Assembly: GCA_002269645.1 (NCBI GenBank)
Contig: NIVC01004094.1
Coordinates: forward strand, 1 to 60,889
DNA length: 60,889 nucleotides
Reading direction: 5' to 3'
Origin: Macrostomum lignano
Lineage: Eukaryota
Of the stretch, positions 34,497 through 54,642 are shown in pieces (positions within the stretch are counted from its first letter, which is position 1; the number at the start of each line of letters is the position of its first letter). Under the pieces are notes generated by a model. The model saw nothing but the letters and a program-made list of their open reading frames with translations, did not search any database and had not been told where the DNA came from. Made by a program: the position numbers and the translations under genes.

Positions 34497-36377
34497 GGCG
34501 CGCACAAATTTGAGCAGTGTATTGGATTGGCTTGAGCAGATAGGGCCGGGATTCACAATTTCTTAGATTTTGTCTTCAGTTTATATATAATTTTTTGTTA
34601 CAAGGCCTTAGGCTGTAAGACTGTGGGGTGGTGGGGCAGGCGGACAAGAGCGGGGGTTGCAATGTACACTCGCGCACGGAACAGAGGGGGCGGGTGACTG
34701 GCGGTTGTACACAGTGGGGGGAGGCTAACGAACACTTAAAAAGGGTAGTCTGTAATTAAAAGGCTAATGTAAGTAAACAAGTCTATGAAATCACGTGACT
34801 GGTCCTGACTTACGTACAAAGCAATCAATCTTAAACTTGTCGTCATCATCATTAGAAAGCTATAGGCCAGTTCAGGTGCGTTCCGTCAAATCCAAGATCA
34901 CCTACTGAAGAGTAGCAAGAAATGAATGTGAAGCGTATCATTTCCTAAAGTTAGCGAAAAAATCGAACATATAACATGTTATGGGTGGGACGGTCCTGGC
35001 TCTTGTAAACACTACTATTGACTATAGTCATCAGAAACTAATTTTTGCACTAGAACATAGTTTGGTGTTGTTATTTTATGATTCAGTTGTACTGGCCATT
35101 GATAGCAAAAAGAATAGCCTTTAAACCAGTTGTCACAAATCAGTCCTGACCAGTTATGAGTTTGAATATTTTATTAGACAATATATTGAATCTGTGCTTC
35201 CATTTTTGATAAAGTTGAAAAGCACTTTCACTGTGACTATGAACACTAGTTAGTTATTGCATTTCTAATCAAAACATGTTCATTGGTGAGAAGACCAGAG
35301 TTCTATGCAGAGAACTGCACAGTAAAAGTCAAAAGGCTTTGCTATATTTGGGCAAGGCAGTTTTACATGGAATCAACTATATATCTCCAGTCCAGGTGCA
35401 GCATCTGGACCTAGCAAAGTTGAGAAAATACTACCAGAATTCTCCACAAGGATGGCCCAGTCTTAGCAATTCTCCCACAACGAAGTTACCATGATTGACA
35501 GGGAATGGAGACAACTGGTATTGGAGATTTCTACTAAAAAATAAAAATTCTAGAACACTACTTGGTCTGCTATCTTACACTTCTGGCTCATTTTTGAAGT
35601 GTAAGGATATCCAACAAGGAACTGCAGTTTCTTGCTATGTTATGCATTGCCGCTACTACTCTCACAGTGCCTTGTGGAAATGCCAAAGTCAAATGCATAT
35701 TTTCTAGTTTGGCAGACCTGCTCACTTGAAAGTGCAACTTGCTGGATTCATCTACCTTTGTGTTTGTCTACTCTTCCATGGCTTCCTTAAGTCATTAGAA
35801 GAAATGTAAAATATTCACTGACCACTAATTTCATTTGAAAATATTGAATATTGCACTCCTTATAGTAAAACAAAGTGATTGCATTTAAAATCAAAGCCAC
35901 TGAGCACTACATTAACACTATAGCCAGGAAGAAGACATGTATATTAGAAATTTCTGGGGTATGCTTAAGAAATTTGGCATACATATTAATGCAGTGATTT
36001 TGGGCTTTTGGTATATGTTTGATACTTTGGTGAGTGACATACTTAAAAATTAAAAAAAAGTATGCTATTAATAATAATCAAAATAGTTGTCCGAGATATA
36101 AGATTGTAAAATTTTATAACTAATTGATGCAAAACTGATTTCTGTGTTTTTTACAAGTTAAGGGTTTGACTTCTAACAAAAATATACAAATTTTATTGTC
36201 TTTTTTAAAATACATGGAATACTATATAAAAAAAGTATTTTTTTTAGTTTTTAACTTTGTTTAATTGAAAAAATCCAATTACTAGTCCAATTTCGAAATT
36301 GATGATTTAAAGTGTTGCATAAAATAGTATAAATATATCATAAAATAAAGATTGTATAAAATATATCATTATATAAA

Positions 36378-36943
36378 AGTAGTAGTATGTTATAAGGGGC
36401 TGCGCCACACTTAATTGCTCGGGCGCATTGCGCGCCAGCTCGCTGGATGACTCAGCCCCTTATAACATACTACTACTACCAGGAGGTCATGGATTCAAGT
36501 GGGTGTGTGATATGTAAATATACATATATCTGTGAGTGAGGGTGTTGAGGGTGAGGGCATGTGGGGGGCATTGGCCTGTGGAATATTTCACCGAACACAG
36601 ATTTTCCGGAATTTTTATACTTTTAAAAAGGGGGGGTGCCCTCGCCCTCATGCCCTCACTCATTTTGAAAATCACTAAAAATAAGTGAAAAATGACTAAA
36701 AACAGGTGAAAATGGTCTGAAAACAGCGATTTTTTGTGATTTTCTAATTTTTTTAAAAAGTGCAATTTTCACGATTCCAGCTCTAAAACCATGAGAAAAG
36801 TTGGATTCACGGGTCAATTTAATGCAATTTCAGGTATATACAATATGAAAGTGTCATCTAATTTGACGATAGTAAATTTTATATATATAAAATGGCCTTC
36901 AGTAAACCATTATTTCTAGGAAATGCTTTAGATATTCAGTCAG
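36378..36943 (+). repeat. Left terminal inverted repeat
   Basis: Reverse complement of 54078-54642, differing by ~3 substitutions and one 1-bp indel. Confidence 0.97.
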
Positions 36944-36985
36944 GTATAGACATAATTGACAATTAGGCATAATCGCCATATAAAA

Positions 36986-37726
36986 ATGAATGATAAAAAT
37001 GAACACATCTATCCTGTGGTTGAGCTGCATGAAGCAGATTTGAGGGAGCGGGACTATTTCAATCAGAGAAAGGGTGAAATCAAAGGCAGTATTGAATGCA
37101 TTACGAAAGATCTTACAATTTATAGCAAAAAGGTAAAAAAGTACAAACGACAAAGTAGCAGGATAAATTGGATCAACATTGTGACAGGAAATGTAAGTCT
37201 CTTGGCTGCTACAGGAATTGGCATAGCAACATCGATACTGACATTGAATCCCTTAGTTATTGGAGTAGTAATCGGGGCAATGAGTGGTTTTGAAGCTGTA
37301 AAATCCACGTCGTTGTTTGCAACTGTGAAAATGCATTGCCAAAAGCAGAAGGCAAAATACATTGTTCTCAGAGATCTGGCAAATCAATACAGAGAGAGAT
37401 TGTATATTTACTCCCAAAAAGCAGTTGATGATTATAGATTAACTCTTGAAGAGGTTCAAGCAGCTGCTGCAATTTATTCAGAATACAGAGAGAAAAGAGA
37501 CCAATTGTTAGACACCTGTGTTGCGCCTGAAGAAGTTAACCATTCGGAAGTCGTTGATAAAATCCTCAAAGAGAGTAGACTTGGTCAATCAGCGAAGGAA
37601 AAAATTAAAAAGGAACTGCTGGAGAAAGATCTGAGAGAAAAATTGGGTCTAGCTGATAAGCCAAAAGAGTACTCGGCAACACTCAATCTTCAATCAAATG
37701 CTCCAAGTGCACCCCCCTATGCTTGA
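36986..37726 (+). CDS. Polinton two-TM/hydrophobic-hairpin protein ending in PSAPPY
   Basis: Hydrophobic hairpin NIVTGNVSLLAATGIGIATSILTLNPLVIGVVIG; start at TAAAAATG; C-terminus NAPSAPPYA*. Confidence 0.8.
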   Translation: MNDKNEHIYPVVELHEADLRERDYFNQRKGEIKGSIECITKDLTIYSKKVKKYKRQSSRINWINIVTGNVSLLAATGIGIATSILTLNPLVIGVVIGAMSGFEAVKSTSLFATVKMHCQKQKAKYIVLRDLANQYRERLYIYSQKAVDDYRLTLEEVQAAAAIYSEYREKRDQLLDTCVAPEEVNHSEVVDKILKESRLGQSAKEKIKKELLEKDLREKLGLADKPKEYSATLNLQSNAPSAPPYA

Positions 37727-37751
37727 GTCTGTTTAATTTTTTTTCTTAAAA

Positions 37752-40700
37752 ATGGAAAGGAAAATACCAGCGGCCTCTTATGAATTCGATCTCGACTCCG
37801 TTGAAGAAATTCGCGGTTTAATCTCCCCAATTCTTTCCGAATATTTGATGGCTAGAGATTCAATAAAATACAGAATTTCCTTTGTCGCAGAATTTTATAA
37901 AGGAACTACCGACAGTTGGATTGAGTTCCAATATCATTCAAAGTATCGAACTTTGTTAAATCTTCTCCAAGTGGAAACTAGTATAGAAAGTACAATTCAG
38001 GATGTTCTGGATGAATTCGATGGATGGAAGGATAGTTTTAATGAAAGGGGATCAGGATATTATTTTGTTAAGTTAGTAAAGATTGTGTTGAAAGTTGTTG
38101 GCATTAATCAGTTGAAAGGAGGAACTTATATTCTAATTCCAATTAAATCAAACGCATTAGTAAATGTTAAGAACACTAAAGACAATAGGTGCTTTCTCTG
38201 GTCTATTTTAGCAAAGCTCCATCCTGTGAAGGAACATAGATATAGAGTTGGTAAGTATACACAGTATATAAATGAAATAAACTTAGGAGACGTTAAATTT
38301 CCAGTGGACATTCGAGATATCTCTGAGATTGAAAAGTTGAACAGTCTTCATATAAATGTGTTTGGATTGAGGGATATAAATACTAAAGAGTCAATATATT
38401 CTATTCGTCTGACAGAAGATTACGACAACCCCAATGTTATTGATTTACTACTTGTTGAAAATCATTATTGCTTAATAACAGACTTGTGTTTATTCCTCAC
38501 GTCCCAAAATTACAACAGGGTTTTTCTTTGTCGAAAGTGTCTTCAAGTCAAATACTCCCAGGATGCACTGGATAATCATAAAGCAATCTGTAATGACTTC
38601 AAAGTGTCAATTGAAGTTCCAAAGATTGATAAGAGGATATTAAAGTTTAAAAACTACCACATGAGTGTAAGAAAACCATTTGTGTTTTATGCAATATTAG
38701 ATTATGTAACGATGGATGATAAATCACTAGAGCTATCACAATGGACACTTTTTACTAGTTCCGACTATGAGGACATTATAAAATCAAATATTATTTTAAA
38801 TACTACAGTGGAATCATTCGTTGAAACCGTAATAAAAAAGTTTGAGCATATAAAAAATGAAATGGATAGATATAAACATCCAAGATTAAGTGATGTCGAA
38901 GAGACTGATTACAAAGCGGCAGAACAATGTTTTCTCTGCTCAAGGCCATTTGTAGATAGTAAAAAAATTCGAGAGCATAATCACTACAATGGTAAATATC
39001 GCGGCGCAGCATGTCAATCATGTAATACCAAGGAGGGCAAGGCGAATCAAACGTACCGTTGTTTCTCCTGAATGAATCTGGAAAAGATCTAAACTATTTG
39101 ATAGTTCCATTAACACGAATAAAGAATACAGCTTATAAATTGGATTTCATTTCTAAAACATCGGAAGACCATGTTGCAATTAAGTGGGGGAATTATACCA
39201 GTGGTGTTGTGTTTTTAGATGGATCTAGGTTTTTGGAACCACCATTTACACTCTCTGAAGAAGAAATAAAATATTTGCCACCCAGTGATACAACAGCAGT
39301 AATTAGAAAGATTTACTCATTTGTCAACGCTTTTGAGAAGTTTCGATCAACATTTTTGAAATATTTCAAGATAGATCCTGCGTATTGCTTTTCCCTTTCT
39401 GGATTATCGTGGGCATGTGGGTTGAAATATACTAATGTGGAATTGGAATTACTTGGTGATAAAGAAATGATATCCATGGTAGAAAGTGGTATTCGCGGCG
39501 GTTTCTCTGGAGTTCTTGGAGATCGATATAAAAAAATGAATAACAAGTATTTAGAAAGTTATGACAGCAATTCTGAATCGTCGTACATGCTATACTTGGA
39601 CAAGAATAATTTATATGGTGAAGCAATGATGAAAAATCTACCTGTGGGAGATTTCAAGTTTGAAAATGATCTAGAGTATCACAAGAATATTCCTAATGGC
39701 AGGGGTTGTTTTCTTGAAGTTGACCTTCAATATACAGAGGAATGTAAGAAAGCTACAAGTAAATATCCACTGGCTCCTGAGAAACGGACAACTAGGTTTG
39801 AGGATTTATCTGATATACAGAAGCAATATCTTGAAGTCGAAAAGAAAAAGTTTGTTCAATCCAAGTTGATGTTGACATTTTACAACAAGGAGAAATATGT
39901 TTTACATCACAGACTACTTGAGTTTTATGAGAAGATGGGCATGCGAGTTACGAGAGTTTATAGAATTCTTTCATTCAAAGAGTCAAACTGGTTGAGTAAA
40001 TACATCGAATTTAATACCAGGCGGAGAATGGAAGCAAAAACTAAATTTGAGAAAGACCTGTGGAAACTACTGAACAATTCATTCTACGGTAAAACAATCG
40101 AAAATGTAAAGAATAGGTCGAACCCTCATCTTGTAGCTGAAGAAAAAACTGCAAGGCGTTATTTTTCCAAACCAAATTTCAAAGATTTCATTATGTTTAG
40201 TGAGGATGCAGTTGGTGTCCAAATGTACAAAAAGACAATTGCGTGTGACAAGCCAATTTATTTAGGGATGGCCATTCTGGATTATGCAAAAATGCTAATG
40301 TACGATTGCTATTACAATGTTATTGAGAAGAATTGGAACAGCTGTCAATTGCACTATTCTGATTGTGATTCGTTGATATTCTCAGTGATTACTCAGGATG
40401 TTTATGAGGATCTTGAAAAAATTAAAGAACACTTAGACACATCGGATTATCCAACAGAGCATCCACTATACTCCGAGACGAACAAGAAAGTTATTGGAAA
40501 GTTGAAAGATGAAATGAATGGCTCAATAATTTCCGAAGCTGTATTCCTGCGGTCAAAGGAGTATGCTTTCACTACAGTTTCAGGGGAGTGTGTTACGATC
40601 AAGGGGGTTGATAAAAGCAGTACAAATATAAAGTTTGAAACATTTAAAAACATACTATTGACAGATTACAAAGATATTCAAAGAGGTAGAGTAAGTATGA

Positions 40701-40819
40701 CTGTATCTGAAAAAAATAAAATATATATTCGTGAGATTATGAAACAAACAATGAGTCCGTTAGATGATAAAAGATATTATTTGGATCCTATCAGATCTAT
40801 TCCTCATCAGCCAATGTAA
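37752..40819 (+). CDS. polB: Protein-primed family B DNA polymerase with C2H2 and endonuclease-VII-like inserts; one frameshift near 39050
   Basis: Motif A YLDKNNLYGEAM, motif B KLLNNSFYGKT, motif C YSDCDS; CFLC...EHNHYNGKYRGAACQSCN; adding one base joins the two ORFs into ~1022 aa. Confidence 0.95.
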
Positions 40820-43305
40820 TCTCATTGATAACATCTTCGTTTATTTTTTTCGTGCACTGTAGCAACACATTTCTAGTTTCTTGCTGTTTACCATCTATCC
40901 TACGCCTATATCTATCCTTATAATACTTACAATAGTCATTGTGATTCTTGAAGAAATCTGTTATGTATTGTTGTTGGAATTCACGTTTCTCACGTTGGGC
41001 TAGAGTCCTATAGTATTCACTCTCTGTTGCGGCAGTGTAAATTTCTCTAATAAGCAAAAATGTTTTTTCCTCAGTTTCTAAAAATTCATAATTCTCTTCA
41101 AAGAAGTGAGCAAACCAATTACAATTCTGTATGAATTCATTAGTGTTTTCAATTACGCTTTTCGATCGATATATTTCACCCTTTGTTTGCTTGAAAATTT
41201 CTAGTAGGTGTTTCATCTCAGCAAACTTATATTTATTCTTAAACTCCTCGGTCTTAAGATATGAATCGGCTTTATAAATGTGTTTCGCATGATCAATGAT
41301 GTCGGTATCTGTTGTATATTTACATGGGTAATTAATATTTATAATTCGTCTTTTTTCTGCATCTCCAATATTTTGTCTAAAGTCAGGCTTGTTGTTGCAT
41401 TCGACTATTAGGGTTGCGTGTAAAACGACATTACACTGACTTGAATATAAATTTCTAGCTTGGATAACCCCACCACCAGTTAGTAATTTTATTGATGCAT
41501 TGTTCAAGACACCACTTACTTCTTGACTGATAACCAACCTCTTTTTATTAATTTGTGCTAGGGCTGGTTGTGGCCTGTCTATTCTTATTGGTGAATTCAA
41601 AACATCAGGACTCAGTGGTGCTGCATAATCAGATCCTAGAGTTCTAAGAAGTAGGTTGTCCTCAACCCCCTTGCCATTTCCACCAGCGCCATCAAACATT
41701 ATAAAGTTTTCAACATTCTTACCCATTAGAGCTGTGGCTATAACGGATTCCCAACTTTTTCTATTTTCTGGATCGGGATGAATTTGGTTATGCAGATTAA
41801 CAATGAAGCCATAGTCGTAATCACTCACTCCAAGTACATCCGAGTAATTATATCCCACCGATTTAGTAACGTAATCGTCATATCTATACTCGCGAAACTC
41901 ACCTGTAAGGAGGTCGTATACTCCATCGTTAAACCCTAGCAAATTCCATTTCATGTCGAATTCAATTTCATTGTTAGTAAACCTCTCTTTGAACAAAGTA
42001 GTTACCTGTTTGAGTTTGTTGGCTCCTTGTATTGAATTTATATTCTTTATTGTACTCTGTAGTTTCTTTTCAAGTGCTTTTAACTTCTCTTTATCATCAG
42101 CCGCCTTCTTAATTGCAATTTCGAGTCTAGTCTTTCGGTGGTTTAACTCACTGCTGACAAGGTGTGATATTTTAAGAAATATGTCATTTATACTACTTAG
42201 TTCTCTCCACTTATCATCATCAAAATAGTAAATACCATCGCTATTGTAAATTATATTATTCTTCTTATATTCATAAACAAAGTTGGTTATATTAACGTCA
42301 GTGAAATTATCATCAAGAACTCAATCCTACCATAATAATCATATTTGCTTTTCCATTCCTTATATTTGTTATAGTTTTCTTCACTTGCCCATTTCTTTAG
42401 TGTACCGATAGTAAGTCTGTCCTGTGCATCAGCAGAGCTGGTACTGGTGCTATTCCACACCTTTTTACATGATTCGGAATCGAACTTATCATAATTTACT
42501 TTTGACCAATCAGTGAATACTTTGTACATTTCATCACCACTGTCTATGTCGCGGAGTATAAGTGCTACCTTGTACCAAGAATCATAGTCTTGGTTTTTGT
42601 GTTGTATTATACTTAACAACTTTGAAGCTCCTTCACAAGTGGGTGGTGGAACGGTGCTTTTTAGTGCCTGTTTATCGGGTTCTTGGTTTTCTTTTTTATC
42701 CTGTGGCTTTATTAATCTATTTATCTCATCAAGAATTACATCTCGCATGTCTATTAAACATTTGGACTTTGTACGTTTGTATTCCTAATTTCACCATCGA
42801 CATAATAGAAACCTGGTGGAGCAAATACTAAGGCGGGAATATCAAAACCCACACTTTGTTGAATCGTTACTTTCAATCCATCTACTTTGTTAAAGTAAAA
42901 GTGGTGTCCCTTGTTTGTCTGAACAACCCAATCACAATGAGTCATACACAGTTCATTCAACTCAGGGCATAGGTCAGCATTATCAATATCGATTACGGTT
43001 ATATTTGAGTTTCTAGTATCTATCCAAATCATGTTGTCTACATCTGGTCGAAATGGTGGTGAGGTTGAATTCCTATCTGCTTTGGTTGGCATTCCTGATG
43101 GTATTTTTTTCTTTGTTTTACTATTCCATGTTACACTGCAACTTCCGAATCTAAAATTAAGTTCTTCATAGAGATTAATTAGTTTATCGTACGATTTTGT
43201 TTGTTTTAAATTTGTCAATCTTGGTGGTGGGACATCATGGTTTTGAAGCGGATCCTGTACGATCACAGGAGAGAAACTTGAATCGTTTTGATTTTTTCTT
43301 TCCAT
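40797..43305 (-). CDS. Prim-Pol + PriCT-2 + D5-like SF3 helicase, split by at least 3 frameshifts
   Basis: VIDID..VQTNKGHHFYF (primase-polymerase); YDSWYKVALILR...FTDWS..KVWNS..LTIGTLKKWA (PriCT-2); LLGFNDGVYDL (D5_N); Walker A FDGAGGNGKG; KKRLVISQE; IKLLTGG. Confidence 0.88.
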
Positions 43306-43321
43306 TTTATTTAAAATAAAT

Positions 43322-43663
43322 TTAACAATATAATTCATCAGTTTCAATGTACTTCTCAAGGGTTATGGGGAGTTTGAAAATGTTCAACTTAAGCATGACG
43401 AAAAATTCATCATTCCTTATGTGCTGTCTCGAAATCAATGCCCATTTATCAACATGTGCAAGATATACTCTGAATGAATACAAATATGGGGGGCATTTAC
43501 AATCGCTGTGTTTTAATATTTCTGCTTTATATTCATCGTAAGCTTTATCAATTTCTTCAATTAGTCGAGCCTTTCGAGTTGGTGTTTTTATTTGAGAGAA
43601 ATTTATAATAGAATCATAATACTTTTGTGGCAGTGCATTTCGTACATTTGGGTTAGCTTCCAT
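43322..43663 (-). CDS. Hypothetical 113-aa Polinton protein
   Basis: Clean ORF with AAAAATG start context, co-oriented with its neighbours; no family recognised. Confidence 0.55.
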   Translation of the reverse strand: MEANPNVRNALPQKYYDSIINFSQIKTPTRKARLIEEIDKAYDEYKAEILKHSDCKCPPYLYSFRVYLAHVDKWALISRQHIRNDEFFVMLKLNIFKLPITLEKYIETDELYC

Positions 43664-43679
43664 TTTTCTATGAAAAATT

Positions 43680-43978
43680 TAACATTTTTGCTTTCTTTTG
43701 GGCAAATTTCTATAGATAATCCAACTTTAGCATTTTCTGTGTATCATTATACTTTGTCTTCTTAAATTTTCGCTACTTTTGCGCCTACTTCATTGGCAGC
43801 TTTTTTATTATTGACTGCCTTTGCGATTCCGGCAGCACCTGCCTGTCTTATGAGAGGTAGATTGTCTTTTAGTAAGTTGGAATGGTGCTTCTAGTATCAA
43901 AATACCTTCTCCATTGTACTCTAGGGGCTCACCTATTGTATACTCTCTTAGCTTGCGTGGATCTGTAACGGGGCACAT
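43680..43978 (-). CDS. Small frameshifted ORF with NGEG|IFD motif (putative second membrane-lytic/core protein)
   Basis: MCPVTDPRKLREYTIGEPLEYNGEG then, after a frame change, LLKDNLPLIRQAGAAGIAKAVNNKKAANEVGAKVAK; resembles the ORF at 51944. Confidence 0.45.
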
Positions 43979-44142
43979 TTTTGTCTATTTTTAGAAACAG
44001 AAAAATAAACACAGGAACAGAAAAAGACTTTCAGACACCAAAGGCCAAACTCCATTGGGCTAAATGTGGCCTGCTCAAAGCGATGATATATTTGTTTAAA
44101 TTATTACCTTAATAAATGTTTGATATCAAGTCATGTTGATAA

Positions 44143-44412
44143 TTATGGCGCATTAGATGGTTCTATATCAGCGCGGCATGTTGGGCACCTAACCATGTTG
44201 CCCTCTTGAATTCCGGTGCGATAACATATTTCACAAACCACAGCTCGACAACATGCCATGGTAACGTTTGGTGGCCGTGGTTCGTGTTGGCAGATTGGAC
44301 AAAGCCCTTGATTATTCCCCGGCTGAGCTGGATGGTTCTGTACTTGAGTCGGGTTATCCTCTGGTTGAATATCAGCTAGTTGGTGCTCCATATCTTGGCG
44401 ATAAGCAACCAA
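44143..44412 (-). CDS. RING-finger-like protein (5' end uncertain)
   Basis: CPIC-x12-CC-x4-CEIC-x12-CPTC. Confidence 0.7.
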   Translation of the reverse strand: MVAYRQDMEHQLADIQPEDNPTQVQNHPAQPGNNQGLCPICQHEPRPPNVTMACCRAVVCEICYRTGIQEGNMVRCPTCRADIEPSNAP

Positions 44413-44527
44413 GCGCCTCTCTGCTTCTTGAACGCGACGTTTTTGAAGATAGTAGTTCTAGGAAAGGGTTTGGTGCGCTCGTATATGATTTTTGTAAACT
44501 TAAAACCTTATAATGTAAAAACACTTT

Positions 44528-44719
44528 TTAACTAACCTTTAGCTGATTAAAGAAGCGCTCTTCATTAGCCAAATTTTGTGGGTTATACTCCAAAAAGATG
44601 TTGATGGCAATATCTCTAAACATTGAGTTCCTATGGTGTTGTCGCAAATTTCGCTCACGAATTCTAAGAGTTGCTCTAGCGGCAGTAAGCCTCTCGTGCA
44701 AATTCGAGAAAGAAGGCAT
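44528..44719 (-). CDS. Hypothetical 63-aa protein, possibly the 5' part of the RING gene
   Basis: Short helical/basic ORF immediately upstream of, and co-oriented with, the RING ORF. Confidence 0.35.
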   Translation of the reverse strand: MPSFSNLHERLTAARATLRIRERNLRQHHRNSMFRDIAINIFLEYNPQNLANEERFFNQLKVS

Positions 44720-44934
44720 TGTAGGAATGATATTTTGTAAGAAGGTAAAGTTAGTAGAGAAAAATTACTAGACCTTGCCGCTCGTGGCCATTCATTTATA
44801 TATTTTTATGACAAAACGTCAGACCCCGCATTCCATTCAGACCAAAACACGAGACCAATTTTTATCTTTTTATTTTTCGAAATTTTCTTCTCGCGTTTTG
44901 GTCTCGCGTTTTGGTCTGAATGGAATGCATGACT

Positions 44935-45417
44935 CAGTGTAGCAAGAGTATAAGATAAAAAATATAAAACCCCGAATTCCTGTGTTAGTCATCGAGTGAA
45001 GTTTGCCTACTTGCTTTGCTATCTTGGTCGGACAATAGCCGACCATATTGTTGCGGTGCGAGCTTGCTTCTGTGTAGCAAGAGTAGATGAAAAATATAAA
45101 ACCCCGAATTCCTGTGTTAGTCATCGAGTGAAGTTTGCCTACTTGCTTTACTATCTTGGTCGGACAATAGCCGACCATATTGTTGCGGTGCGAGCTTGCT
45201 TCTGTGTAGCAAGAGTATAAGATAAAAAATATACAACCCCGAATTCCTGCGTTACTCATTGAGTAAAGTTTGCCTACTTGCTTTGCTACGGTGGTTGGAC
45301 AATAGCCGACCATATTATTGCTCTGCGAGATTGCTTCTGTGTGTAGCAAAAGTAGATGAAAAATATACAACCCCGAATTCCTGCGTTAGTCACTGAGTGA
45401 AGTTTGCCTACTTGCCA
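44935..45417. repeat. 132-135-bp structured tandem repeat, ~3.6 copies, inside the Polinton
   Basis: cccgaattcc at 44971, 45103, 45238 and 45372; internal stems ggtcgg/ccgacc and cttgct/agcaag. Confidence 0.92.
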
Positions 45418-45510
45418 GCTTCCTAAGATAGTAATTTTTTGTTTATTGACCCCGTTGGGAGTTTTTGTACTTATGTTGTGTTTTTATGGTGACTATGGTA
45501 TTATGTCTAA

Positions 45511-46919
45511 TTATGTGACAATTATGTCTAAAATCGGATAAAGTTGAAAGCCTGAAACAATAAGAACAGTTGATCCTTCAGTGGCTGAATTAATATGCAC
45601 TCTATAACCGGAGAATTTTTCGGTGGAAGCTACTTCAAAATATTTCATCACTCCAGGAACTAAACCAGCATTTTCGGTAGAAAAAATATTCCTAAAGTCT
45701 CTCTTGTTATTGCTCCCTTTCAGAATAAAACTTTTTGGTTGATTTTTTATAATTTCACTACCTACTGCTTTGGTTCCTTTCAATCCGAATTTCCAAATTT
45801 GAATAGATTCAGGAAGTTGTACTTCAATGTAAGAATTGGGTTCATTCCTCGATGCCCATTCTGAATTAGATACTATATAACCCCAATTATCTGACGTTTC
45901 AAATGCTCCTGATGACGCTACATTGAAACCCCTTTCTCTATAGTTTTGACGTGTTGCTAGTGAGGGAATATATCCTGTATAAGATTTGAAACCTAGTCCC
46001 CGCCTTAGTCGCAGCTCCACTGATTCAAGTGCATTGTCTACGTATAGCTTTGGTACAGCTTGAAGTCTATCTATAGGCCACACTAAATCATTAACCACTG
46101 TTTGTCTCTCAAGTAATTCAACTTTTGTAAGCTTTACGGAACCAGAAAAATTAAGAGAATAATGGAAATAATATGAGGGTTTGGGTATTTTTTTCCTAAG
46201 ATGTGCATTGCCCCTTCGTAGTTCAATGGGTGCACTTTGTTCAACAGGTGTCCAGTTTGTTCCATTTAGGCTCACACTAACAGACCAACCAGGCCACACC
46301 TCTCCTTCCAACTTTATCTCTACAACTTTCCTAGCTCTTTTCAAAAATTGAAATCGTATCCACTTGTCTGAGTCATCTGCACTGCTCCATTCTGAAGCCG
46401 GGTTTGAATCTGCAACATGATATGCTGCTGAAGAGTTATGAGAAGCGGTCACTTTCATGTCAGGATGGGAAGCGTTTGAAGTCAGTAATGAAAGAATATT
46501 GACTAATTTCGAACTCTCTGTACCTCCCGCAGTACCTTGCCTTCTGCTAACAAAGTGTCAATCTCAGTTTTAGAATACATCTTAGTGTCAATCTCAGTTT
46601 TAGAATACATCTTAGTGTCAATCTCAGTTTTAGAATACATCTTAGTGTCAGTTTCGGTTTTTGTGCAGACATTGTTTACGCGCCCATGAGCATCGTCAAT
46701 TAATTGTAGCATGGTGATATTCATTGCGTCACTATCTTCCTTTGAATAAGAGTCTGAAACATCTCTCTTTGCTAACAATAAATTATCTATTTCCTCTCTC
46801 TTATATCCTTCATTTTCATTGATGTATCGATCATCAGCTAACGCTATTGTTATTCCAGGTGCTATATCATTTGAATTTGACGAGTAACCAAATTGATTAG
46901 CAGTATTCTTGTAACTCAT
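45511..46919 (-). CDS. Fiber/receptor-binding-like protein: YSKTEID repeats plus two F5/8-type-C (discoidin)-like domains; one frameshift near 46505
   Basis: 30-bp repeats encoding YSKTEIDTKM; SEWSS...KWIRFQF and SEWAS...SYIEVQLP...PKSFILKGSNN...FSGYRVHI; adding one base fuses 46503-46919 and 45511-46458 into ~469 aa. Confidence 0.7.
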
Positions 46920-47347
46920 TTTAATTGCTGCAAAATTTCATTATAGCTATCTCCTTTATCGATTCGATGTAAAAAGTACAGCGACATTTGACCACAAAAT
47001 TTCTTATCTAAAGTTTGAATTTGTTCTTCCATGTCTCCACATATTCTATTCTTTGTGTGATTAAACTTTTCCATAATTTCCAGTGTGGGCGGTAGTGCAT
47101 AGGAATCAAAAAAATAAACCTTATCATGAGCTGAAAAGATAGCTGAATGATGTATACCCCGTTCTTTCGAAGTGTGAATATTTGTCATAAAGTAACCATA
47201 CTGTGGTAAATCAACAATTTCATCTCTCATGGCATAGCGAAATGGTTTTAACTTGAGATATTTTGCCCAATTTATCAGATCAATATTAGTCGTAGTGTCA
47301 GTCCCAAACTTTTGTTTAAATGCATTCCATGTCTCAGCTTCGCTCAT
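46916..47347 (-). CDS. Adenain-like cysteine maturation protease
   Basis: GIHHSAI (His), YFFDSY (Asp), QIQ...FCG (Gln, Cys). Confidence 0.9.
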   Translation of the reverse strand: MSEAETWNAFKQKFGTDTTTNIDLINWAKYLKLKPFRYAMRDEIVDLPQYGYFMTNIHTSKERGIHHSAIFSAHDKVYFFDSYALPPTLEIMEKFNHTKNRICGDMEEQIQTLDKKFCGQMSLYFLHRIDKGDSYNEILQQLK

Positions 47348-47356
47348 TTTTAACAC

Positions 47357-48148
47357 TCATATTTGTCGTACGTGTAGATTTATAAATATTTCCTCGCCAT
47401 CAAAGTCGTATAGAACACCAGACTCATCTTCGATGACAAAGTCGAATGTGCTCAACATGTTTGTAGTTAGTGGTAGGTACACAGGATTTGCAGGCTCTTG
47501 AATAATTTTACTTCCCATTGGGACAGAGAACGATGGAATTGAAAGAAGTATTTGCTTATCAATTAAATGATTTCCATTGGCTGGATCAGTGATAAAACCC
47601 CCTTTGATATTGAGACAACGAACCATGATCGCACTTCTAGCTCCGTCTATCCGAGCTGGATTTGGAGCTCTCTCAAATGGTTTCAAATACACTTCCGAAT
47701 TGAATCCCAACAGTCTTCTAAAGTTATTGGAATGTGCATCCCTGAAATCAACTTGATACTCTGTGGCTAACCGTAACTCAACCCTACGCGTGTCTAGGCT
47801 TGCACTGAAAACAATAGCCCCCTCTTTCCAATCATTTGCAGCTGTTAGCAATCTTTGAATCTCGCTTGACAGACTTTTAACTTCCCAAGATCCTGCTTGA
47901 ATCTTTATTTTCTTCCATGTTCTACCACTATCCCTCGAGTATCGCAACTCATTATTGCCTCCTTCAATATTGTTAATAGCATCAAAGACTGCAAACTTTT
48001 TTATACCAGCTTCGTATTCTCGATCTTCATACAAATTTATCGGAGTGCCTAGAGTTTGTCGAAATGGGTTTTTAATTGAAAAGAAGTCAAATGTGCGTTG
48101 AAACTTTTTACTCAAGAGGATGTTGACTTTTTCTATTTCTTTTTCCAT
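47357..48148 (-). CDS. Minor capsid (penton) protein
   Basis: 263 aa, beta-rich; NNELRYS..G..WKKIKI..GSWE, FRRLLGF, ILLSIP, PVYLPL, GEEIFINLHVR; typical position in the capsid module. Confidence 0.85.
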   Translation of the reverse strand: MEKEIEKVNILLSKKFQRTFDFFSIKNPFRQTLGTPINLYEDREYEAGIKKFAVFDAINNIEGGNNELRYSRDSGRTWKKIKIQAGSWEVKSLSSEIQRLLTAANDWKEGAIVFSASLDTRRVELRLATEYQVDFRDAHSNNFRRLLGFNSEVYLKPFERAPNPARIDGARSAIMVRCLNIKGGFITDPANGNHLIDKQILLSIPSFSVPMGSKIIQEPANPVYLPLTTNMLSTFDFVIEDESGVLYDFDGEEIFINLHVRQI

Positions 48149-48150
48149 TT

Positions 48151-48882
48151 TTAAGCAAGTAATTCTACTAGCTCTTTATCAACATTGTTATGTCCCTCTG
48201 CTTTTGCGGCTAGTAATGTCAACACTCTTTCACTGAGTCCAGATCCCGGTTTTACTCGATATCCTGGTGGATTATCTTTCAATATCCTTACTGCTTGCTT
48301 ATAATTCCCACTTGATTTGGCCGCTGGATTTTTACAGTGTTCAATGAGGTTAACATAATCCTGCAATGTTTGCATCTTGAATTGCTTCAGCTCTTCACCA
48401 TTTTCAGTTACTTTAGGCATTTTGAACAACTCTTCAAGATCTTCAGAAAATGGCATTCGGAATTCGTTGACAATGATGTCCCGACCTTGTTCATGGAATT
48501 CAACCTCTATTACAGATGATCCAAATATATATCCAGCATCAGTTTTTTGAATCCGTATACTAGGCGCTGGTCTTTGAGTTATTGGAATCTTTCCAATTTC
48601 TTCAATTATTTTGTCAAATACTTCCAGAGGTTCAAATCGTCCTTTTGGTGTACTTAATTGCGGAACTGGAACTTTTTGATTCTGAAGTTTATCAACAAGG
48701 TTGGCATTGAAATCAATAAATTCATCAAGCTTTTCTGTGACAGGTTTTTGAGCTAATGGAGCCACTCTTGCATATAAACTCTCTTCTCCAATTTTCAAAT
48801 AGCGTTGAGCATCATTTCTGGATTTGTACGTTTCTCGCTGCTTTGCTAAATTAATGAGTTCTCTTATATATTCATTAGTCAT
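48151..48882 (-). CDS. Conserved Polinton core protein (PZ-like)
   Basis: KPVTEKL near the N-terminus; C-terminal GSG|LSERVLTLLAAKAEGHNN..E motif typical of Mavericks. Confidence 0.65.
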   Translation of the reverse strand: MTNEYIRELINLAKQRETYKSRNDAQRYLKIGEESLYARVAPLAQKPVTEKLDEFIDFNANLVDKLQNQKVPVPQLSTPKGRFEPLEVFDKIIEEIGKIPITQRPAPSIRIQKTDAGYIFGSSVIEVEFHEQGRDIIVNEFRMPFSEDLEELFKMPKVTENGEELKQFKMQTLQDYVNLIEHCKNPAAKSSGNYKQAVRILKDNPPGYRVKPGSGLSERVLTLLAAKAEGHNNVDKELVELLA

Positions 48883-48884
48883 TT

Positions 48885-49658
48885 TTACAATGGGATTTTA
48901 GTTAGAACATCCTTATACAAATCTTGCTCATCCTCATCAGCTCTTGTATTTATATAGATATAGCCATACTTCTTTTTCCAAGCCTCTCTACATTTAGCCT
49001 TGAATATAGCGGGTTCATAATTCGTTTCTATATTTCTAGCAATGTGATTTAAGTTTGTATCTTTTTGTTTAAAGATTATGTAACATGTCGTATTCTCCCT
49101 GACAGTATTGCGATCTAGTTTGGTAAAATTTTGAGCTAGATAAAAACCACAACAGTTTCCATGCCTGCCTCTCTGAAACAGACTTTCCTGAAATGTTTGA
49201 TTAGCCTCTCCCAAAACATCGTCCAATATCACACATGTCTTTAGTCCATTATGAAAAATTTCTTCATTTGGAGTATGGGAAAGAGTGACAGGAATTTTCT
49301 CTATTACTTCTGAATTTTCTGATGTGCTTTGCACTCGACCAGGGTTGGCTGCCTCTCGACAAATATGTCTAATATCTTCAGGAGATGCATCCTCACTCAC
49401 CTGGTAGACATGATAGAGTGAGTTGATAAGAGAAGGTGGGAGACCATTTTCAAAGCCATATTTTAGAAACTGATACTCTGGATCCATTTGAGATGCTCTG
49501 GGAACATATAAAACTAACTCATTAAAGTCAACTAGTTTTTCAGGACTTGTAAGAATATGGAATAGTAAATATGTTTTACCCGTATTTGTAGCGCCGATAA
49601 TACAACATAAAAGAGGATTAGGGAAAATAGGATCATGCTGAAATTTTACTTTGGGCAT
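48885..49658 (-). CDS. A32/FtsK-HerA-like DNA packaging ATPase
   Basis: Walker A IIGATNTGKT, Walker B CVILDD, RGRH, YLAQ, VREN. Confidence 0.95.
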   Translation of the reverse strand: MPKVKFQHDPIFPNPLLCCIIGATNTGKTYLLFHILTSPEKLVDFNELVLYVPRASQMDPEYQFLKYGFENGLPPSLINSLYHVYQVSEDASPEDIRHICREAANPGRVQSTSENSEVIEKIPVTLSHTPNEEIFHNGLKTCVILDDVLGEANQTFQESLFQRGRHGNCCGFYLAQNFTKLDRNTVRENTTCYIIFKQKDTNLNHIARNIETNYEPAIFKAKCREAWKKKYGYIYINTRADEDEQDLYKDVLTKIPL

Positions 49659-49679
49659 TTAAAAAAAGAAAAAATGACC

Positions 49680-51044
49680 TTATTCGACGCGGGTCATTTG
49701 ATATTCACTGGTAACTTTTATTACATTCTTTGTTTGTTCAAGAATTAGTGCAAAAGCAGTCAGCTCAACATTTGTTGACTTCTTGATAAATAATTGAATA
49801 TTCACTCCACTCTTGACCAGAAACTCATCTTGAGCTGTTAGATCAAAGCAAAAGATTGGATAGATGGTTAGAAAGTCTTGTTTATTGAATGGAGGAGTTA
49901 CACCGAAACGGCTGCAGATGTCTTCGTACATTTCATACGCTCTGTGAATGTCTTGAGCTACTGGATCAATTTCAACATAATCATTCGGATACATCACCTG
50001 ATTTAATCTGACTTGAAGCTGGGTTATTTTCACTGCATTTGCTCCAGTTTTGTAAGACACATACTTGTGATCATTAACTATATATGATGGGTTGTTTACG
50101 TCATATTTGAAAGCTACAAAGATTGCAAGTGGCATATTGGAGATGTTGGCTATGTTCCATGTATATGGACTTCCTTGAATGAGTTGTGGTGGAACCGTTA
50201 CCCTCTCTGGAAATGATACTGTAATGTCCTTGTTGAGTGATTTTAGAAAAGCTGCTTCAGCACTGGGTGACAAAGTAATAGCAGGGATCCAAATCTCAAA
50301 GCTATTAATAGTTAACTTAGCTTCCGTCCCGGCAGCTCCAAAGAAAATTTCAGCATCGTTAGTCTTTCTTGTCCATGTGAATTTATATTTAATTCCTTTG
50401 CTAATCTTCTGCCAATCAAGGAACCCAATGAGAGGTGTTAATGATAGTTTGATTGTTCCACCTCTGTTTGGAGCATTAGTGACATTGTTATAATTTTCAA
50501 GCCTCCTAATGTATCCAGTATTCGAATCCTTCTTATTGAGTCTATTTTTCATAGCGATTGCTGCAGTTCTCACAGCTTCAGCATCTGCGTTGTTTGCTAG
50601 AGGTATATCAGAAACAGTCCCAGCATCTCCAGTGTCTGGAATCCATCCGTATGCTTCTCCAACTTCATTCATTAATTTTGAGTACATTACGGACTTTAAG
50701 ATTGTGTCATACTCTCCAGGATCATTATAGACTTTCTTTGTTCCTCCAATGTCAACTATGAGTTGAGAGAAAAGTCTCATAGGCCAATTATGTTCTAGAG
50801 TAATGTTCGTATTCAAGTCGGTGTTATCTCGTTGTGTTATTGAGTATTTTATACAACCGAATGCCTCTGACATGAGAATGTATGACTCTGTTGAATTGAC
50901 TTCATGAACTATTTGACCTCCTGCAACATTGAGATTATTAGTGCTACCTGGAGTTGGAGAAATCTTAATATAGTCTTCTTTCTTTTTGAAAAAGCTAAAA
51001 GTTTTGTCCTCATATATGCTCAGTATATCCTTTTTGTTCTCCAT
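49680..51044 (-). CDS. Double jelly-roll major capsid protein (hexon/PY)
   Basis: Intact 454-aa ORF; LFSQLIVDIGG, PLIGFLD, IWIPAITL, PLAIFVAF, QVRLNQVMYP, YPIFCFDLT. Confidence 0.88.
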   Translation of the reverse strand: MENKKDILSIYEDKTFSFFKKKEDYIKISPTPGSTNNLNVAGGQIVHEVNSTESYILMSEAFGCIKYSITQRDNTDLNTNITLEHNWPMRLFSQLIVDIGGTKKVYNDPGEYDTILKSVMYSKLMNEVGEAYGWIPDTGDAGTVSDIPLANNADAEAVRTAAIAMKNRLNKKDSNTGYIRRLENYNNVTNAPNRGGTIKLSLTPLIGFLDWQKISKGIKYKFTWTRKTNDAEIFFGAAGTEAKLTINSFEIWIPAITLSPSAEAAFLKSLNKDITVSFPERVTVPPQLIQGSPYTWNIANISNMPLAIFVAFKYDVNNPSYIVNDHKYVSYKTGANAVKITQLQVRLNQVMYPNDYVEIDPVAQDIHRAYEMYEDICSRFGVTPPFNKQDFLTIYPIFCFDLTAQDEFLVKSGVNIQLFIKKSTNVELTAFALILEQTKNVIKVTSEYQMTRVE

Positions 51045-51128
51045 TTTTATAAGAGAAATTTCAACTAAGCTTCATGAGGTCTAAGAATTATCCCATTACC
51101 CTGTTTCTCCTTTTCAACTTTAAAGTCT

Positions 51129-51515
51129 TTAGCAGCCACTTGACTGCTTCGCTGGGACTTGTTCGACTCTTTTAGCCGCATCAACTAATACTCCACTCCC
51201 TTGAGCCTTTTTCAACTCTTCTAGTTTTTGCCGTTCAATGCTTTCTATTGTCTTATTATGTTTAGCATTGTTGGCTGTATTAACACTTTTTGCAATCATT
51301 GTACCAACTCCTGAGGCTGCTCCGATACCACCCAAAATTGCTGGTAGTAAGCCTAATAGAGGAATTATTCCACCTTCATGTTCTTTCTGTTTCTCTTGCA
51401 ATTCTCGAATCTTCTCTTTAGAAAGATATTGCTTTTGCTTATTTACAGTAACATATCTTGGTTTTCCCTCTCGAACATATCGATTGAGTCTTGCTTCAGT
51501 GTTTTTCTCGCTCAT
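51129..51515 (-). CDS. Small structural protein with GG|IIPLLGLLPAILGG hydrophobic segment (membrane-penetration candidate)
   Basis: TAAAAATG start; hydrophobic segment directly after a GG motif, as seen in Maverick small core proteins. Confidence 0.7.
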   Translation of the reverse strand: MSEKNTEARLNRYVREGKPRYVTVNKQKQYLSKEKIRELQEKQKEHEGGIIPLLGLLPAILGGIGAASGVGTMIAKSVNTANNAKHNKTIESIERQKLEELKKAQGSGVLVDAAKRVEQVPAKQSSGC

Positions 51516-51538
51516 TTTTAAGGTCAGAATTTCTTCAA

Positions 51539-51944
51539 CCATTGCCTTGTCTCAAAGACACTTGAGACTGTTCTGCTGTTCCTAGAGCCTTTTTAACAAT
51601 ATCTTGAATAGCCTTATTTGATTGAGAAGCTATCTGTTGCTCTTCTTCCATTCTTTCTTTGCTTCTTTATCTCTACGTTTCTTTTTAATATATTCCAGTT
51701 CCTCACCTGCTTTAGACATGTCACTGTATGATTTCTTCGCATCGAATATGTTCTTCGCTGTGGTAGCTGTTTTACCTATTGCATCAGCTCCACTCACAAT
51801 TTTACTTCCATGATTTGATAAAAAGTTTGTGACACCACTGATCATATCACCAATTCCTTCACCCTCTTTATCAGCTAGTAGTTGTGAATCAGACGTTTCA
51901 ATCTGACCTTTCGCCCGTTTGCAGTTTGTTCGATAGGCGCTCAT
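51539..51944 (-). CDS. Small structural protein with GEG|IGDMISGVTNFL amphipathic helix; frameshift near 51645
   Basis: TAAAAATG start; amphipathic helix after GEG; the shifted frame ends ...RQGNG*. Confidence 0.65.
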
Positions 51945-54129
51945 TTTTAGTTGAAAAATTTGCTGGTAGAAGCTGGGATTTGTAAAATGATCCAATGATT
52001 TCTTCTCCATTCTCATCCTCAATAATGTAGGTTATGGGATTGGAGTAAACTATTTTCTTTATCCTAAACACTTCTGAAATTTTCCAATATCCTCTTCGAC
52101 CCTTTTCAAAGTGCTCCTTATATCTATAGATATGAACTTTGTCACCTACTTTGAAGTTTGGTTTCTCATTTGAATACTCGAAAGTTGGCTTTGGTACTCG
52201 CTCAGGATGTTTAGATGCTTCTGAAGGAGTTATCAGAATCTCAGAATGGATTGTGTTGTTGTATTTTTCAACAATAGCTGGCAATGTGTGGAGCCACTTC
52301 TGATTACCCTGTAGATCAAATTCAAACCAGAGTTTATTTGTGAGAGTACGATTGAACCTCTCAATCATTGCATTCTTGGACTCGCCATAAATTGAAAACA
52401 TCTTTTATATATTCACCCTTTCATCCTTCTTTCTAATGTTGTCTTTTGAAAACGAATATAGCTTGTACATATGCTGATTATAAAACTCCTTGCCTTCATC
52501 TACACAAAGTCTCTCTGATCGTCTTCCTGATTCCTTAAATACTTTTTGGAAAGCTTCTGCAACTTCCGCTCCCGTCTTTGTTTTCAAAGGAACTGCCCAG
52601 GCGTAACGTGTAAAACCATCTATGATAGTAGAGCATATTTGTAACCTCTTTCGGGGTAGGATAATGATATCTGCATGCCAAATTGTGTCTTTTGCATAGT
52701 GAATCATTTTTCTAAATACTCTTGGCTTTCGATATTCTTTATGCAATTTTACTGCATCTTCATAGCTAAGACCCTTACCATAAATTGTTAGACAGTCAAT
52801 ACAATTGTTGGGGTTGTGAGTATGAATGCCTAATCCAAACCGAACTTTAGCCTTGATAATACGCTTTACTAGATTTCGAATGAGTCTCTCTTTCACAGAC
52901 AAGTCACTGGTTGGAATAGCATCTAAATCAGCTATCATTTTTTCATCAGCTATATGCTTCTTTGCTAGAGCTTCCTCTGGATTTGAAGAAGTGTTTTCAG
53001 CATCTCTATAGTTTTTGTCATGATAGTAAGCAGTCCAATCGATTGGGTTAATTGGTAGACTGTCATACCGAGGCCGGTCTGTAATTGGATTGAGTCTCTT
53101 GTCTAAATTTGTACCCGGCAGTTGTTCCTCAATCTTTCGAAAGAGGCTGGACTTTATCTTAAGGCTTCATCAGGATTGACCAGATCCTTCAGCCCCACCC
53201 CCATTAAGTCTCTGAACCTTCTCCATATCCTTGTCAACTTCGTTCGGACTTAGGAGCTTGGCTGCGGATTTCCACCATGTCCTCAAGCTTGTTACCATCG
53301 AACCATAGGTTCGCGGACGAAGTCCGATTGGGAACAGGAATTACCTGTGTTCCTTCAGAAGATTTCTCAACTGAAGTGGTACTTGAGGCTGTTATTGACG
53401 TACTAGAATCGGACGGAGTTCCCGCAATTTGAAGGTGTCGCCAATCACTAAGCACTTGTTTAATGTTGGTTATAATGTTTTTGTATTGATCACCATAAAG
53501 AAATTTCAATGCAAATTCTCCTGTTATAAGGGTGATTCCATTGTCTAGTAAAATATTCTTAGGTTCCTTTGTAGTTTATTGATGCATACATAATACAACT
53601 GATAGGTGGGATAAGAATTTTTATAGTCTAATAGTTTCTGATAATTCCTTTCACGACTTGATGAATTGTCCGTGTTATCAGAAGATTTAAGCTCTAATGC
53701 AATCTTTCGCTCAACGTGAACCAGGTCAATCTTTTTTACCTTCTCGAATCCAAAATAATTTTCTGCTAATATTTCATATAGTCTGCCTAGTCTCATTTGA
53801 ATAACTTTAATCTTGTGTGAAATTATTAACTCTTCTTGGAAAAGATCATGAAGAATTTGATCATGCCCAACCTTATCATCAATTGGTTTCAGAAGAATTT
53901 CTCGAATTGTTTGCTCCATTTTTACTATAGAAACTTTAACAAGTGCTTATTTGATGACTAGCAAGGACATTGACTTCCTCACTCAGGCCACTACGTAACC
54001 TGCAAAAGAATACCCTGGAATATGAAGTTCTCCTGGGTATTTTCCAGTGGCGAAGATGGGTGGTAGTTTTGTTATAGCTGACTGAATATCTAAAGCATTT
54101 CCTAGAAATAATGGTTTACTGAAGGCCAT
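51898..54129 (-). CDS. int: Parvovirus-type PLA2 domain fused to a retroviral-like DDE integrase; exon 1 54129-53998, exon 2 from 53118; in-frame stop at 52405-52407
   Basis: The spliced junction gives ELHIPGYSFAG|PGTNLDKRL...PINPIDWTAYYHDKNY (PLA2 HD dyad); then WHAD, YAWAVPLKTK, CVDEGKEFYN, IERFNRTL, FKVGDKV, GSFY; exon 2 is in frame with the ORF at 52938. Confidence 0.9.
53119..53997 (-). ncRNA. Group I self-splicing intron (IC1-like), 879 nt
   Basis: Follows exon U and ends in G; P AAATTGCGGGAA (53419-53430), Q AATCCGCAGC (53261-53270), R TCAGAGACTT (53206-53215), S AAGATAAAGTCC (53149-53160); P1 with U.G, plus P2, P2.1, P3, P4, P5a/b/c with A-rich bulge, P6, P7, P8, P9 and P9.0 identified by eye. 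Confidence 0.95.
53234..53919 (-). CDS. Intron-encoded PD-(D/E)xK nuclease, restriction-enzyme-like; putative homing endonuclease (one-base frameshift near 53575)
   Basis: LGRLYE...KIDLV...IALELKS..NTDNSSS...YQKL; restoring one A joins TKEPKNILLDNGITLITGEFALKFLYGDQY; has its own TAAAAATG start. Confidence 0.75.
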
Positions 54130-54642
54130 TTTATATATATAAAATTTACTATCGTTGAATTGGATGACACTTTCATATTGTATATACCTGAAATTGCATT
54201 AAATTGACCCGTGAATCCAACTTTTCTCATGGTTTTAGAGCTGGAATCGTGAAAATTGCACTTTTTAAAAAAATTAGAAAATCACAAAAAATCGCTGTTT
54301 TCAGACCATTTTCACCTGTTTTTAGTCATTTTTCACTTATTTTTAGTGATTTTCAAAATGAGTGAGGGCATGAGGGCGAGGGCACCCCCCCTTTTTAAAA
54401 GTATAAAAATTCCGGAAAATCTGTGTTCGGTGAAATATTCCACAGGCCAATGCCCCCCACATGCCCTCACCCTCAACACCCTCACTCACAGATATATGTA
54501 TATTTACATATCACACACCACTTGAATCCATGACCTCCTGGTAGTAGTAGTATGTTATAAGGGGCTGAGTCATCCAGCGAGCTGGCGCGCAATGCGCCCG
54601 AGCAATTAAGTGTGGCGCAGCCCCTTATAACATACTACTACT
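54078..54642 (-). repeat. Right terminal inverted repeat
   Basis: Reverse complement of the left TIR; contains the first 17 codons of the PLA2-integrase gene. Confidence 0.97.

Follow-up and report, generated by a model that had tools for sequence, protein, structure and literature searches.

An adintovirus-type Polinton provirus of Macrostomum lignano with a group I intron in its PLA2-integrase gene and a mavirus-like replicon, probably a member of a young and active family

Several described systems come close to the element analyzed here. Adintoviruses and PLA2X were defined by Starrett et al., who call PLA2 an Alpha marker; animal Polintons/adintoviruses, as outlined there, have terminal inverted repeats (TIRs), a 6-bp target-site duplication (TSD), an OTU-pPolB polymerase, an rve integrase, an FtsK ATPase, adenain, hexon, penton and PLA2 (PMC8502044). 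Mavirus, in the account of PMC11161782, combines a pPolB carrying an exonuclease remnant with a superfamily 3 (SF3) helicase, an rve integrase and an endogenous provirus form. In the survey of PMC12220804, group I introns of the Rfam family RF00028 were found only in Polinton-like viruses (PLVs) of a few protists (cryptophyte, rhizarian and chlorophyte), and nuclear group I introns are described as restricted to ribosomal DNA (rDNA) in PMC8395846. We studied an element of 18,265 bp (positions 36378-54642) in a contig of the flatworm Macrostomum lignano (NIVC01004094.1, assembly GCA_002269645.1); the 60,889 nucleotides of this contig are referred to below as the window. The element shares with animal Polintons/adintoviruses the components listed for them, penton and adenain being probable assignments, and differs from adintoviruses, as presented in PMC8502044, in that PLA2 is fused to the integrase, a group I intron is present, the polymerase exonuclease is lost and an AEP-D5 gene is added. 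It is likely a recently integrated provirus from an adintovirus-type Polinton family, probably still active, in M. lignano or a very close relative. Polinton-type insertions in flatworms have already been noted (10.1101/2025.04.19.649669), and the class itself is known; what is new here is the homing-type intron in the PLA2-integrase gene and the mavirus-like replicon.

The boundaries, TIRs, target site and gene set make it as good as certain that the element is a Polinton. The hexamer TATAAA stands directly outside both ends (36372-36377 and 54643-54648); a shared hexamer is expected by chance at about 0.1% in such AT-rich flanks, and at 0.4% for TATAAA itself. The left TIR, with its AGTAGT end, covers 36378-36948 (571 bp) and the right one 54073-54642. 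They align over 571 columns at 99.1% identity, with four substitutions and one single-base gap; all four substitutions fall within the inner 90 bp, and the outer 480 bp contain none. Left and right ends alike read AGTAGTAGT. Long TIRs with AG...CT ends and a 6-bp TSD, the marks of Polinton/Maverick elements, are thus both present. An earlier note on this DNA had described a perfect 6-bp duplication, near-identical TIRs and an apparently recent Polinton provirus, all of which agree with these data. The CpG ratio of the element (0.65) contrasts with that of its flanks (0.15 and 0.11), and no further copy of the element was found within the window.

Each TIR also holds a terminal palindrome of 100 bp (36378-36477, mirrored at 54543-54642; DNA fold of -32.3 kcal/mol, z -8.4); the inner arm of this palindrome repeats the element end in inward orientation. 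At one site the two TIRs differ as TG in one and CA in the other (36864-36865 and 54156-54157), as would be left by a CpG deaminated on opposite strands, a hint of methylation in the provirus or its donor. The left TIR duplicates the start codon and first codons of PLA2 (36892-36948), which creates a short open reading frame (ORF) ahead of the first gene, ORF A. A single promoter borne by the TIRs may drive both ends of the element.

A full set of virion genes lies on the minus strand. The major capsid protein (MCP, of the double jelly-roll type; 49680-51044) matches Pfam DJR-like_dom (PF21738, E 2e-13) above cut-off; a PDB sequence search with it names nothing, and its profile has no PDB match at E<=1. 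The A32/FtsK packaging ATPase (48885-49658) matches Pfam Pox_A32 (PF04665), likewise above cut-off, and retains Walker A, Walker B and RGRH. The presumed penton or minor capsid protein (47357-48148) and the presumed adenain/Ulp1-type maturation protease (46916-47347) are named by no library in Pfam, NCBIfam and PDB sequence searches. Their counterparts come from a pattern scan of GTDB, in which only 3 of 34 matches are distant Polinton loci (L001, L002 and L003): the penton stands at 28% (E 1e-20) and the protease at 31% to syntenic ORFs of L002 and L003, in which the His, Asp, Gln and Cys retained by the protease of the element are invariant. The penton also reaches an Atlas score of 0.98 to Preplasmiviricota clusters. 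We regard these two ORFs as a probable penton and a probable adenain/Ulp1-type protease. All four genes (MCP, penton, ATPase, protease) consist of one open frame, which relatives match in a single frame; the earlier note had called these ORFs intact.

The virion set is completed by a fiber-like gene and three small proteins of probable core type. The fiber-like gene (45511-46919, minus strand) consists of 30-bp repeats followed by two discoidin (F5/8 type C) domains (Pfam, E 2.5e-10), and its PHROGs match is a tail protein. A protein of 243 aa (48151-48882, minus strand, open), which lies between penton and ATPase and has no family match, is a probable core protein. The region 51129-51944 (minus strand) encodes two small proteins of core type that contain GxG sites; the ORF at 51515 has a homolog in L002 (E 6e-11), and the gene starting from 51944 is probably broken near 51.66 kb. 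It might be argued that all of this belongs to a self-synthesizing transposon that stays inside the cell and keeps virion genes without using particles, since Maverick virions are stated never to have been observed (PMC8097293). The presence of every virion gene with its catalytic residues, along with fiber-like and PLA2 entry genes, the conservation of MCP at 33-63% across 11 relatives, and an intron whose presence and absence imply exchange between lineages (see below) make this improbable. Whether the family makes particles nevertheless seems, from its genes, an evenly poised question.

The MCP search returned 12 proteins, of which the first (P0001) is BOX15_Mlig029656g2 of Macrostomum lignano (NCBI), identical at 453 of 454 residues. 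The locus prefix BOX15_Mlig presumably belongs to the gene set of M. lignano built from RNA-seq. The GenBank gene set of this species is described as filtered from an RNA-seq assembly, in which a common name prefix marks transcripts that are at least 95% alike (PMC5730564). A near-identical annotated capsid in a set of this origin indicates that the capsid gene has a sibling and is probably transcribed from some copy. This sibling could stem from the duplicated chromosomes of that line and not from transposition.

The replication genes depart most clearly from the adintovirus scheme. The pPolB gene (37752-40819, plus strand) encodes a terminal-protein/vOTU region, an EndoVII insertion, an exonuclease remnant and the polymerase core, and has 1019 homologs, the best at 53%. 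It may lean towards adintovirus Beta/group 1, while PLA2 counts as an Alpha marker (PMC8502044). It was aligned with 74 of the 120 homologs listed (those of at least 600 aa, 46 shorter ones being dropped), its two gene pieces forming separate rows. In this alignment the ExoI Asp, present in 19 of 21 homologs, is replaced; ExoII retains its Asn and Asp and has lost a near-invariant Tyr and His; the Tyr and Asp of ExoIII (70/70 and 70/71 homologs) are deleted. The ExoII-PolA span measures 171, compared with 194-359 (median 253.5) in 54 homologs. The intact ExoI-III of a typical Polinton pPolB are therefore missing, and these motifs are reported as conserved in all taxon groups in the Polinton pPolB survey of 10.1101/2023.08.22.554363. 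Pfam PF03175 has no match in the element and is carried by 12 of the 120 listed homologs. The exonuclease block stands at 33% to 12 close relatives, which are at 77% among themselves (minimum 61%); for the polymerase core the corresponding values are 52% and 62%. PolA, PolB, both PolC aspartates and the Cys/His of vOTU are retained. With several invariant sites altered and the exonuclease block far more diverged than the core, a long relaxation is indicated, and proofreading was very probably lost long ago. We considered a recent lesion of the exonuclease and rejected it, several separate invariant sites being changed in a block that diverged so much more than the core.

The gene for the second replication protein (40797-43305, minus strand) joins an AEP Prim-Pol, PriCT-2 and a D5 (SF3) helicase, according to Pfam and PHROGs. 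It is one gene in three frames, and the protein P0134 spans all three pieces in order; among 150 matches, 28 extend to the PriCT-2 piece and 3 to the Prim-Pol piece. The protein contains the AEP DxD and His motifs, and its helicase Walker A ends in GKG, as it does in 96 of the 150 homologs. With its exonuclease-remnant pPolB, SF3 helicase, rve integrase and endogenous provirus the element resembles mavirus (PMC11161782), from which it differs in having an animal host and a pPolB that groups with animal Polinton enzymes retaining the exonuclease. This grouping comes from a pPolB tree (FastTree, 74 rows, midpoint root, 3 short homologs dropped, comparison set without mavirus), which places the element within a clade of 21 tips (support 0.969) of animal-type Polinton enzymes; 17 of the other 20 tips keep ExoIII, one has Asn and two are gapped. 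Because the pPolB sits among animal enzymes that keep the exonuclease, the likeness to mavirus looks convergent.

The same likeness could mean that the element depends on a helper, like the mavirus virophage, being silent in the chromosome and transcribed and replicated only upon co-infection by a large DNA virus. The replicon layout as in mavirus (exonuclease remnant, SF3 helicase, rve integrase), the group I introns of protist PLVs and the AAAATG start context at 14 of the 17 listed start codons (the starts being partly picked by that motif) point that way. AAAATG is, however, also a common start context in invertebrates, pPolB nests with animal-type Polinton enzymes in a tree without mavirus, the apparent spliceosomal intron of a RING gene described below needs the nucleus, and the sibling capsid was annotated from ordinary laboratory RNA-seq, so that we regard helper dependence as quite improbable. 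Another arrangement would have AEP-D5 as the main replicase, possibly initiating at the terminal palindromes, and pPolB on its way to being lost. A pPolB without proofreading, with an odd PolC and a branch longer than any other in its clade (0.98 compared with 0.38-0.83), the AEP DxD/His motifs, the 100-bp terminal hairpin and the frequency of AEP-SF3 replicases in PLVs as given in PMC11161782 are in keeping with this. It is very doubtful all the same, for the enzyme retains PolA, PolB, both aspartates of PolC and the Cys/His of vOTU, and its core is still at 52% to relatives.

The PLA2-integrase gene, on the minus strand, is split by a group I intron. Exon 1 (53998-54129), which has its start codon within the right TIR, and exon 2 (51898-53118) flank an insert of 879 nt in phase 0 (53119-53997). 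These limits are defined by the seamless mapping of the protein P0285, residues 1-44 of which correspond to 54129-53998 (89%) and residues 45-359 to 53118-52135 (72%), with neither gap nor overlap. The insert matches RF00028 at 53128-53511 (minus strand) with 88.9 bits for a cut-off of 50 (E 6.5e-22). The 5' exon ends in U, with a U.G in an 8-bp P1, the intron ends in G and the exons join in frame. Helices P3, P4, P7, P8 and P9 pair, one pair of P7 differing from the Rfam consensus on both sides with pairing kept, and P5 has a long extension; the core motifs seem IC1-like. That this is a real group I intron is hardly open to doubt, and its signals suggest that it is self-splicing. The integrase matches Pfam rve above cut-off and, although the gene is broken, retains its D, D and E, as PLA2 does its HD. 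Among its 16 listed matches, 6 span the intron site (4 of them uninterrupted) and 10 stop short of it. The other two of the six, P0283 and P0284, start with a translation of the last bases of the intron, and judging from these protein ends only, both genes probably contain the same intron. Its presence in some relatives and absence in others argues for exchange between lineages. Loci L002 and L003 have protease, ATPase, penton, MCP, PLA2, integrase and pPolB homologs of the element at 23-41%, and differ in lacking the intron and any D5 or nuclease match and in having PLA2 and integrase in separate frames; no group I intron was found in L001-L003.

An ORF for a PD-(D/E)XK nuclease (53234-53919, minus strand) is located between P1 and the intron core and has the same start context as other genes of the element. 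It matches Pfam RE_Eco47II with 28.9 bits for a cut-off of 25.9 (E 1e-6). Its position and the intron's presence or absence among relatives make the product a candidate homing endonuclease, and homing may be supposed on the same basis. The second piece of its frame stays open for 68 codons across the ribozyme core (53234-53437). A single-sequence fold of a nuclease piece was unusable (predicted local distance difference test, pLDDT, 55). Before the intron was found, the Eco47II-like ORF had been considered a free-standing gene next to a truncated PLA2, an interpretation that was then dropped. Matches of the element to Rfam microRNA families are mere hairpins, far under the cut-offs.

The intron resembles those of protist PLVs in that it interrupts a protein gene and that the element carrying it is integrated and of Polinton type; the cryptophyte ones described in PMC12220804 are of 309-376 bp and interrupt a short gene before MCP, whereas this one has 879 nt, sits in PLA2-integrase, carries a nuclease gene and occurs in a bilaterian. 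It shares with nuclear rDNA introns, as treated in PMC8395846, a nuclear location and a sense-strand nuclease gene in the 5' peripheral region, and differs from them in interrupting an mRNA and encoding an Eco47II-like PD-(D/E)XK enzyme instead of occupying rRNA genes of microbial eukaryotes with His-Cys nucleases. In a database of 42,459 group I introns, built from a search of NCBI nt that possibly missed draft assemblies, the animal examples come from placozoans, corals and sponges alone and are mostly mitochondrial (PMC11835236).

Several genes are broken in the assembled copy. The pPolB gene runs in two frames (break near 39.03-39.07 kb), the primase-helicase gene in three (42.77 and 42.32 kb), and the fiber-like gene (46.5 kb, the join of its pieces being our reading) and intron nuclease (53.56 kb) in two each. 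In PLA2-integrase the sequence is scrambled at two short spots (52.64 and 52.41 kb, approximately); both are one codon shorter than the corresponding stretches of relatives, and the second contains a stop. The description of the provirus as complete in the earlier note consequently applies to its gene inventory and not to its reading frames. The same note held the lesions to be mostly single-base gaps, and indeed all five simple breaks step by -1, two of the five being bounded by overlapping ORFs only, without homolog support. Two small genes probably step in the same direction, to judge by their frames, and no lone point-mutation stop was seen in the genes of the element. It had also reported such lesions in host genes, for which there is one clear case: exon 3 of host CK1-gamma (minus strand) begins one base out of frame, with the same -1 step; a lesion in the NTPDase gene is unconfirmed, and the two exons of ING are unbroken. 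One of the TIRs, too, carries a single-base gap. One-directional losses, the lack of nonsense changes and outer TIRs free of substitutions fit long-read error better than decay, and we consider it likely that most frame breaks are sequence errors.

If the breaks are real, the element is a young but dead copy, and at most its capsid region is transcribed, from the sibling. Seven to nine broken spots in the 15.6 kb of coding DNA and the CpG-type difference between the TIRs are compatible with such decay, and a polymerase without proofreading could itself cause slippage errors. The uniform direction of the simple breaks, the lack of lone stops, the substitution-free outer TIRs and the same step in host CK1 speak against it, and a dead copy is unlikely. 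At the observed break density four virion genes would remain intact by chance in 6-22% of cases, so that alone they are no sign of selection in this copy. A number of observations weigh against a young, active family read through sequencing errors. In the copy as assembled, the polymerase, helicase and integrase genes are all broken. No M. lignano protein occurs among the 120 pPolB homologs or the 16 integrase matches listed, so that nothing points to an intact annotated sibling of either gene, and the capsid identifier BOX15_Mlig029656g2 is absent from the supplements of three papers (3, 1 and 1 files). The TG/CA site suggests CpG decay in both repeats. The host comparison is a single gene, CK1, whose break could be hidden by an alternative splice acceptor, and homopolymer context, tried as a test for error, is uninformative since 277 of 608 windows of 30 nt have a run of at least 4. 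In pPolB, the PolC motif is DCD, in contrast to the DTD of 73 of 74 homologs, and two further tips of the clade also lack ExoIII in the alignment. Reactivation of this very copy, which the earlier note had thought possible, appears, from its frames, somewhat unlikely.

Taken together, the genes suggest the following cycle. The rve integrase would insert the linear genome with a 6-bp duplication, and pPolB would replicate it by protein priming without proofreading, while the AEP-D5 protein would unwind the template and perhaps reprime it, in line with the proposal made for mavirus. Particles would be built and filled by capsid, penton and ATPase, and the protease would cleave, at GxG sites, both the core proteins and the PLA2-integrase polyprotein; the discoidin fiber would bind cells and PLA2 would aid entry through the membrane. 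PLA2-integrase would be produced only once the group I intron has spliced itself, and the intron nuclease would allow homing into intron-free copies. The whole picture is one we offer tentatively, with somewhat less than even confidence: in an active flatworm Polinton family, the integrase mRNA would depend on a homing intron that splices itself in an animal nucleus; this intron would be spread by a homing nuclease of restriction-enzyme type, belonging to an undescribed family; and replication would combine a proofreading-free polymerase with a primase-helicase, convergent on mavirus.

The element has some further features. ORF A (36986-37726, plus strand, open) encodes a helical protein with two transmembrane segments. 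It is SLATT-like, matching SLATT_1 only below cut-off (Pfam E 0.028, NCBIfam E 2e-4), and has Atlas scores of 0.90-0.92 to clusters without names; its single-sequence fold is poor (pLDDT 48), with no Foldseek match at E<=0.001. An initial assignment to GasderminX was dropped, the SLATT-like signal being the sole one. Two small ORFs without family match lie at 43322-43978 (minus strand), of which 43663-43322 is open and the one from 43978 is probably broken. The RING-finger gene (44143-44719, minus strand; Pfam zf-C3HC4_3, E 7e-5, below cut-off) is probably spliced, with a predicted GT-AG intron at 44458-44536 (79 nt, in frame), so that the element may carry both intron types. In a non-coding spacer (44828-45415), a 132-bp repeat is present in 3.6 copies beside a 101-nt hairpin. 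One frame of the spacer has a weak HIRAN match below cut-off (E 2e-4); the region may serve as an origin or a terminator, or be what is left of a decayed gene.

The flanks carry animal-type genes with introns (CK1, ING), a WSC domain, an NTPDase motif and a long interspersed nuclear element (LINE). Host CK1-gamma occupies 4300-7350 (minus strand), with the donor region of exon 1 in tandem copies, and the ING (PHD finger) gene with two exons and no visible break lies at 29859-31671. At 17850-18735 there is an NTPDase-like host gene in several frames, of which the first motif alone matches Pfam. A tandem array of a 21-bp unit extends over 3.7 kb (13835-17540), with more arrays near 21-23 kb and 26-27.4 kb. 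To the right, 55121-55246 resembles 32818-32936, short nested inverted repeats at 55850-56570 are possibly a miniature inverted-repeat transposable element, and the GC-rich LINE (58570-60889), its reverse transcriptase in many frames, extends past the window end. As for the distant loci, L001-L003 are contigs filed within bacterial or archaeal metagenome-assembled genomes in GTDB, of which they are probably eukaryotic contamination; near one end of L003 (397-482) there is a weak match to a CPEB3/HDV-like ribozyme (28.9 bits for a cut-off of 35).

In the literature outside subscription journals, Repbase and bioRxiv supplements, we found neither an animal Polinton with a group I intron nor a description of this element's family. 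Coral Polinton genes are reported as expressed, and some Polintons as having helicases (PMC11131425); PLV primase-helicases, homing endonuclease genes and SLATT genes are treated in PMC11296320 and 10.64898/2026.10.13.758929. The polymerase of the element is a second case in which the loss of proofreading is paired with an SF3 helicase, and its nuclease may be a new type of homing endonuclease. As regards the absence of group I introns from animal nuclear genes, an intron at a site essential for the integrase, brought by a Polinton into a bilaterian nucleus, constitutes a natural test. The question of animal Polinton particles becomes testable as well: the family looks young, the sibling of its capsid gene is annotated from RNA-seq, and the host is a cultured, transgenic model animal. 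If these readings are true, M. lignano would be a bilaterian in which a nuclear-encoded mRNA loses a group I intron by splicing, and Polinton particles could be sought in a tractable system.

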